A stretch of 18,386 nt of DNA from IMG/VR virus record IMGVR_UViG_2869947659_000009, positions 1-18,386 of that record, one strand, 5' to 3'. The notes under the pieces were generated by a model. The model saw only the letters and a list, made by a program, of their open reading frames with translations, ran no database searches and had not been told where the DNA came from. The number at the start of each line of letters is the position of its first letter. Positions within the stretch are counted from its first letter, which is position 1. Below are positions 11,127 to 12,056 of this stretch, piece by piece. Both the position numbers and the translations under genes were made by a program. The stretch is from a virus (lineage: Duplodnaviria; Heunggongvirae; Uroviricota; Caudoviricetes).

Positions 11127-11694
11127 GGATTTGCCCCTATATTTCCAGACATCTGTTATCACTTAACCCATTACAAGCCCGCTGCCGCAGATATTCCCGT
11201 GGCGAGTGATAACCCAGCGCACTATGCGGATGCCATTCGTTATAATGCTCGAACGCCTCTGCAAGGTTCTTTGCTGCCGTTAACCCGTCTGGTTTGGGCA
11301 TGATACTGATGTAGTCACGCTTTATCGTTTTCACGAAGCTCTCTGCTATTCCGTTACTCTCCGGACTCCGCACCGCCGTGTTCTTCGGTTCAAGTCCCAA
11401 CATCCGGGCGAACTGGCGTGTTTCATTAGCCCGGTAGCATGAACCATTATCCGTCAGCCACTCCACTGGAGACGACGGAAGATCGTTGCCGAAGCGGCGT
11501 TCCACCGCACCCAGCATGACGTCCTGTACTGTTTCACTGTTGAAGCCGCCGGTAGTCACCGCCCAGTGCAGTGCCTCACGATCACAGCAGTCCAGCGCGA
11601 ACGTGACACGCAGTCTCTCTCCGTTATCACAGCAGAACTCGAACCCGTCAGAGCACCATCGCTGATTGCTTTCTTTCACGGCCACTCTGCCGGG
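11127..11694 (-). mobile_element. IS2 remnant (3' 568 bp only), deletion junction
   Basis: Starts with the IS2 terminus TGGATTTGCCCCTATATTTCCAGACATCTGTTATCACTTAACCC. Encodes the C-terminal 180 aa of InsD (...[26 protein letters not shown]...[22 protein letters not shown]). IS2 identity stops abruptly at 11694 (...ggccactctgccgg). Confidence 0.8.
11137..11685 (-). pseudogene. insD: IS2 insD (orfB), 5'-truncated
   Basis: Translation matches the C-terminal part of IS2 InsD from memory. The apparent start codon is an internal GTG (Val) of InsD. Confidence 0.8.
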
Positions 11695-12056
11695 TCTGTA
11701 AGGATGTGACAGGCATTGAACCCCGTAACGCCAGTGTTATTGAAGTTCCTGATATTACCGCCAACCGCCGCATTACCGCGCCGGGTTACTGGTTTTACCG
11801 CAATGATGAATTTGTCTTTGACTACAGACTCAAAGCGGAAGATGAGCGTGATGCCCTTCTGGCTCAGGTCAGTGCCCGGACAGGGGAATGGGAAGAAGAC
11901 CTGCTGCTGGGGCTAATCAGCGACGAAGACCGGGAAAAACTGAAAGCGTACCGCATTTACGCGAAATCGCTGCAGGCGATGGATTTCAGTGTCATCACTG
12001 ATAAAACCTCATACAACGCCATTGAATGGCCCGCCTCTCCGGAAATTTCTTCCTGA
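11695..12056 (+). pseudogene. tfa: Tail fibre assembly protein (lambda Tfa family), C-terminal fragment fused to the IS2 junction
   Basis: C-terminus ...DEDREKLKAYRIYAKSLQAMDFSVITDKTSYNAIEWPASPEISS resembles the lambda Tfa C-terminus (...[32 protein letters not shown]). The N-terminal half is absent. Confidence 0.55.

Follow-up and report, generated by a model that had tools for sequence, protein, structure and literature searches.

A decayed prophage with ipaH3 beside yebY

The window considered here, the whole 18,386-nt stretch of DNA that was analysed, holds the two ends of a prophage. Its left edge is the chromosomal gene yebY (window positions 1-342), which adjoins int fragments, gam, recE, dicB and rha, all on the minus strand, and its right end carries an ipaH gene beyond the remains of tail-fibre genes. 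The features on which our analysis turns are as follows.

5847-9054, minus strand: recE (exonuclease VIII), matching Pfam Exonuc_VIII and split by IS600 at 7577-8841
9900-10745, minus strand: rha, a Rha/Ash-family regulator gene matching Pfam Phage_pRha and Phage_ASH, the last intact early-left gene before the scar
10746-11125, no strand: spacer upstream of rha, the last prophage sequence before the deletion, with IS2 following CTCAC
11691-11692, no strand: joint left by the deletion, with IS2 position 566 next to tfa nt 182
11692-12056, plus strand: tfa 3' fragment, nt 182-546 of a 546-nt tail-fibre assembly gene
12080-13345, plus strand: tail-fibre N-terminal-domain gene, a pseudogene matching Pfam phage_tail_N
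16671-18386, minus strand: ipaH3-type type III secretion effector E3 ubiquitin ligase, matching Pfam NEL and LRR_TTSS, the right-end cargo

An int/xis end with a leftward recombination operon is a Rac-like trait, and it is recognizable here although int is split by IS600 (1261-3843) and xis has been deleted. The IS600 in int itself carries a nested 1,310-bp IS3-family element (1388-2697), which is 96-98% identical to a 1.3-kb IS3-family element at 15114-16419; RefSeq labels copies matching the nested element only as 'IS3 family transposase', and it is probably IS629. An intact IS911 (4277-5526) abuts the interior of int at the equivalent of position 8181 in the orthologous prophage of EIEC O121 strain 201805972 (NZ_CP119441.1; L003 below), and prophage sequence resumes at L003 9944. 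The intervening 1,762 bp (L003 8182-9943), comprising the 5' end of int, xis, a DUF1187 gene and an AAA ATPase gene, are missing beside IS911, a canonical IS-adjacent deletion. The EIEC O121 ortholog has an IS911 of its own 57 bp away, which is hence an independent insertion. At the simple insertions in the window, that of IS600 in recE included, the alignments on the two sides overlap by 3 bp, which is consistent with duplication of the target site. The IS600 copies at 7577-8841 and 13805-15069 are 100% identical and inverted, and they bracket a 4,963-bp segment (8842-13804) that includes the scar. Homologous recombination between them could invert this segment, which in the window has its ancestral orientation.

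At the right end, the tail-fibre N-domain gene is, relative to L003, frameshifted by -1 at 12431 and short of 4 nt at 12983, and the DUF4376 gene that follows has a +1 at 13722 and is split by IS600 (13805-15069), after which comes the IS3-family element at 15114-16419. The surviving tail-fibre end is thus wholly pseudogenised. The ipaH gene is intact and 99.4% identical to a gene annotated as ipaH3 in L003; together with a few early-left genes (gam, dicB, rha) it makes up the open reading frames that are left. The preliminary description had called the element a non-inducible remnant, and its gene content agrees: int is split by IS600, xis was lost beside IS911, the tail-fibre genes are frameshifted, and no repressor, replication, lysis or structural genes remain. 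Because int is broken, xis is gone and the tail-fibre genes are frameshifted, we infer from gene content that the prophage would be dead, unable to excise, replicate, lyse its host or assemble particles.

The IS2 stump and its junction with tfa

Directly beyond the rha spacer, window positions 11126-11691 are a 566-bp fragment of IS2 on the minus strand, 99.5% identical to the full 1,331-bp element. Our reference was an E. coli chromosome copy (L002 6019-7349) that RefSeq names 'IS3-like element IS2 family transposase' and in which the left terminus and the transposase stop codon are 11 nt apart; the window also matches thousands of IS2 copies annotated in RefSeq, at 98-99%. The comparison was anchored on the IS2 terminus TGGATTTGCCCC, with window 11126 as IS2 position 1, and IS2 positions were counted from the end beside the transposase stop codon, where the inverted repeat is IRR by the usual convention. 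Without gaps, 563 of the 566 bases are those of full IS2 (the three mismatches are at 11207, 11509 and 11557). Window 11691 is IS2 position 566, and from 11692 on nearly all bases are mismatched; the match at 11693, considered as a continuation of IS2, is an isolated base and a chance one. A 568-bp IS2 remnant had initially been placed at 11127-11694: the remnant is present, but those coordinates were 1-3 nt off. That IS2 identity stops abruptly inside insD proved correct, because the minus-strand ORF at 11137-11685 matches Pfam rve and rve_3 (integrase core) and translates as the last 184 codons of InsD, and alignment to full IS2 finds no identity past 11691.

What the stump keeps is the inverted repeat by the transposase stop codon and the C-terminal part of insD (orfB); it has lost IRL, insC, the frameshift site and the N-terminal half of insD. 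It represents 43% of IS2, with the same IRR end and the same rve part of InsD. Unlike IS2 it has IRR only, at 11126, rather than two inverted repeats bounding 1,331 bp, and insD 3' codons alone rather than insC/insD with a programmed -1 frameshift, and it is unable to make transposase or to be mobilised as a unit. An exact-protein look-up with the 182-aa InsD stump returned no match because gene callers use a 180-aa start. Of the target site, CTCAC at the IRR end (11125) is visible, and the IRL-side flank was lost with the deletion. In other matches the likeness extends 19 nt to the left of IS2; we set this aside as a chance similarity to the sequence beside an IS2 located downstream of glgS.

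On the other side of the joint, 11692 is tfa nt 182, and the fragment that starts there, as had been proposed, is 97-98% identical to tfa of three EIEC prophages: 97.8% to EIEC O121 (L003), 97.1% to CFSAN029787 (L014) and 97.0% to FDAARGOS_944 (L026). The ORF at 11706-12056 matches Caudo_TAP (PF02413) over profile positions 24-131 of 131. We regard the fragment as a pseudogene because codons 1-60, the start codon among them, are missing. In a three-way display of the window, IS2 and the EIEC O121 prophage (L003), the join is blunt, with 0 nt of microhomology. Six nucleotides from the joint, window 11697 is T where the compared relatives (L003 and both copies in contig L005, described below) have G; this would change Gly to Cys in the dead tfa frame, and could be ordinary divergence or a repair-associated change. 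A neighbourhood of IS2 and tfa in EIEC O121 was considered as the same event and rejected, the IS2 there being full-length and lying inside the downstream tail-fibre N-domain gene. In L005 (GCA_900159265.1, FTYT01000062.1), positions 9206-10536 hold a full tfa with the 5' part of the N-domain gene and then a second, partial copy that covers the 3' part of tfa and the beginning of the N-domain gene. The two copies meet at a short microhomology, GACGG(T)CGC, which is ~12 nt upstream of the point where tfa is broken in the window; the tandem duplication is a separate event or else a quirk of assembly.

The junction recurs in other assemblies. Window 1706-18386 is 100% identical, junction included, to the finished 4.68-Mb chromosome CP026766.1 (L004), and the 11691/11692 joint is spanned at 99.9-100% identity by five further contigs (L006, L007, L010, L011, L012) from other assemblies, one of them metagenomic. 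Draft contigs L008, L009 and L013 start at 11693 or break at 11692/11693, which is to be expected because the repeat ends there. Contigs with an identical Rha protein are mostly short, with none between 5 kb and 1 Mb, and several of the draft ones end ~380 bp upstream of rha, that is, at the IS2 terminus. We conclude that the junction is real and, because a complete chromosome and independent drafts share it, that it is fixed in a repeatedly sampled lineage, for which it could serve as a marker. Among 5,426 complete E. coli genomes the scar is absent and none has IS2 at the left flank, and the 34-mer across the IS2/tfa junction was not found in GTDB one-per-species representatives or JGI metagenome contigs. 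Searches for a progenitor with full IS2 at the site were likewise empty, whether with the left junction (CTTTACTGAAGTTCTCAC joined to TGGATTTGCCCC) in the 5,426 E. coli genomes and the GTDB representatives or with a hypothetical IRL junction in metagenomes. A look-up of the IpaH protein returned the source chromosome only.

To the right of ipaH, beyond window 18386, the source chromosome CP026766.1 (L025 1-9714) has an IS600 fragment, IS1, IS66, two LysR-type genes, a YkuD-family gene and cobT/cobS/cobU; the EIEC ortholog has pphA there instead. This difference in gene order indicates one more IS-associated event, a chromosomal rearrangement or a deletion, where the prophage ends on the right.

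The interval missing relative to related EIEC prophages

The left flank of the scar is collinear with relatives to L003 15381 in EIEC O121 and to L026 10192 in FDAARGOS_944. Beyond that breakpoint the relatives run into a DUF1391 gene and then immunity genes. Two of the reference intervals in NZ_CP065613.1 are as follows.

4286289-4329172: ipaHb prophage of FDAARGOS_944, essentially intact, between ybhA and pgl
4293192-4324349: the 31-kb block of that prophage that is missing in the window

The EIEC O121 ortholog is like the window in its yebY/pphA site, its ipaH3 cargo (99.4%) and its tail-fibre end (97.8%). It differs in its rha region, which is only 87% identical, in having no IS2 here and in retaining immunity, replication, tail and baseplate genes; its own lysis and head genes have been lost next to IS421. 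Relative to it the window lacks 16,003 bp (L003 15382-31384), which hold the DUF1391 gene, a cI-like repressor gene, cro, ydaT, an O-like gene and the replicative helicase gene, then IS421 and sheath-gene fragments with IS600, and then the genes for the tube, tape-measure/transglycosylase, baseplate, spike and tail fibre and the first 181 nt of tfa.

The ~43-kb ipaHb prophage of EIEC FDAARGOS_944 provides an intact standard, and by it the gap is 31,158 bp (L026 10193-41350). Its genes are ordered as in the window at the left end (int, xis, gam, recE, rha) and at the right end (tfa, tail-fibre N-domain gene, DUF4376 gene, ipaH), with identities of 89-99% over the parts in common: ~89-98% in the early-left region, 97% in the tail-fibre genes and 99% in ipaH, whereas its attachment site (ybhA/pgl) and its ipaH allele are different. 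Its early part of the gap comprises immunity and replication genes, DUF977, queH, hokD, nin/Q-like genes and four tRNAs; the late part has holin/RrrD/Rz, dedA, terminase, portal, head and neck genes; and the tail part has sheath, tube, tape measure, baseplate and tail-fibre genes. A third relative, in CFSAN029787 (NZ_CP011416.1, about 4672430-4720300; L014/L015), is near-intact, sits at the Rac site (ttcA) and has as its cargo, in the place of ipaH in the other relatives, the iron/manganese transporter genes sitABCD. The breakpoints are ~35.1 kb apart in it, or ~33.6 kb once its own IS2 and an unaligned spacer are subtracted. The two flanks of the scar, collinear in all three relatives, are accordingly 16.0, 31.2 and about 33.6 kb apart there, as expected if, as first proposed, a deletion joins the early-left region to the tail-fibre genes; the breakpoints, the collinearity and the size and content of the gap are all seen directly in these alignments.

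We found none of the missing modules in the window: in a tblastn search with all 265 ORFs (70 aa or longer) of the L014/L015 and L003 gaps, the only matches were to IS600, which arose because an IS600 happens to sit inside the L003 interval. There are also no phage genes in the 10 kb beyond ipaH of the source chromosome, so the middle modules, reported as missing from the window, do not reappear elsewhere in the element either. The immunity, replication, Q and lysis modules, which a Rac-like prophage would have, are absent from the window and present in the relatives.

The element had been described as lambdoid. For the Rac-like early region that is apt, but it fails for the tail, since the relatives sharing both flanks encode DUF3383 (sheath-like), tube, baseplate J, spike and sheath initiator proteins (Pfam families E217_Gp32, Pam3_gp18, E217_GP41, Sheath_initiator and Baseplate_J) and not a non-contractile tail of the lambda type. 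Judged by these genes, the parental phage had a Rac-like/lambdoid early region and a contractile tail. We found no close cultured phage for the tail module, for which the best tape-measure match was 35% identity, to Klebsiella phages; phiP27 matches the tail-fibre end only, at 82%.

Origin and meaning of the scar

A question arising from these comparisons is how an internal position of IS2 came to be joined to the interior of tfa. We consider it highly probable that the 566-bp stump is a deletion scar, left when an IS2 in the rha spacer was overrun by a later, single illegitimate deletion reaching to tfa nt 181. A temperate phage that carried ipaH3 as cargo past its tail-fibre genes would have occupied the site between yebY and pphA, and an IS2 would have entered its early-left arm a short way upstream of rha. 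The later deletion would then have taken the IRL-proximal 765 bp of IS2 and everything rightward to tfa nt 181, a loss of ~31 kb if the intact relative is a guide, comprising immunity, replication and nin/Q genes, tRNAs, and lysis, terminase, head and tail genes. This order of events, insertion and then deletion, is the one that we propose. For the mechanism, the junction itself points to a double-strand break, resection and homology-independent end-joining, i.e., illegitimate recombination, and E. coli is known to possess a pathway of this kind. As in IS-mediated deletions, a large block of prophage genes is missing beside an IS, here IS2. However, in a canonical IS-adjacent deletion the IS is whole and the endpoint is at its terminus, as at IS911 (4277-5526), whereas the endpoint of the IS2 scar is internal, at IS2 position 566; nor is there at 11691/11692 the one complete hybrid IS that homologous recombination between two IS copies would leave. 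Because the joint shows neither a complete IS nor an IS terminus nor microhomology, illegitimate recombination is most likely, ahead of a transposase-catalysed adjacent deletion or IS-IS recombination. Thus the earlier proposal that IS2 marks a deletion stands, but IS2 as its catalyst is unsupported, the endpoint being internal to IS2 and microhomology being 0 nt. By analogy with the IS421-associated loss in the O121 ortholog, the loss may have accumulated in several steps.

Did IS2 nevertheless drive the loss, in two steps? An adjacent deletion, or recombination between direct IS2 copies, could have come first, followed by removal of the IRL-proximal 765 bp. Prophages of this family do carry IS2 close by and in the same orientation: one copy is in the O121 ipaHb prophage, inside the tail-fibre N-domain gene, and another is in the DUF977 gene of CFSAN029787. 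The IS911 at 4277-5526 shows that IS-adjacent deletion does operate in the element of the window. Either first step would leave IS2 whole and beside tfa nt 182, so that a second deletion would have had to end, to the base, at the IS2 terminus, yet there is no trace of IRL; no intermediates were found among the E. coli genomes, GTDB representatives and metagenomes; and the route requires more events than a single illegitimate deletion. We therefore regard it as improbable. Less probable still, in our estimation, is that the IS2-tfa fusion records an unusual reaction, for which the candidates are an IS2 strand transfer gone awry and end-joining by a Shigella pathway that needs no homology; if it did, the duplication junction of L005, ~12 nt from the tfa breakpoint, would point to a fragile site in tfa.

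Could the middle modules instead survive elsewhere in the chromosome, an inversion or translocation having split the prophage? The source chromosome is rearranged nearby, with IS600, IS1, IS66 and then erfK-cobTSU beyond ipaH rather than pphA, and the two identical inverted IS600 copies flank 8842-13804. An IS-mediated inversion, however, leaves a complete IS at each junction, and here a truncated IS2 is fused to a truncated gene; the segment between the IS600 copies is collinear with the relatives and not inverted; and no phage module lies in the window or in the 10 kb to its right, the left side being chromosomal yebY. We think such a split very unlikely. That the joint is an assembly artefact, a chimeric contig joining the repeat IS2 to a multi-copy tail-fibre gene, has a negligible probability: such genomes do contain several copies of both IS2 and the tfa/tail-fibre module, and draft contig L005 does contain an odd tandem duplication near the breakpoint, but the same junction is in the finished chromosome and in five independent contigs, one metagenomic, and the drafts of other isolates break exactly at 11692/11693, as they should at a repeat boundary.

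A single illegitimate deletion through IS2 is thus the reading we carry forward. The prophages of Shigella have become cryptic through massive gene loss, and their ipaH islands are full of transposases (PMC5596473); ipaH paralogs are surrounded by prophages and pseudogenes (PMC9046306). The locus described here is a well-resolved instance of this ordinary decay of cryptic prophages, in a chromosome that its ipaH and IS load mark as of Shigella type, and it has little import beyond annotation. The scar is functionless: the IS2 is immobile, tfa is a pseudogene, the prophage is dead and ipaH3 has been kept. It documents to the base how an ipaH3 prophage became a fixed, immobile island, with ~31 kb lost and the effector at its right end retained. 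It also provides a concrete case that IS-associated deletions in Shigella are not all transposase-catalysed or the product of IS-IS recombination.
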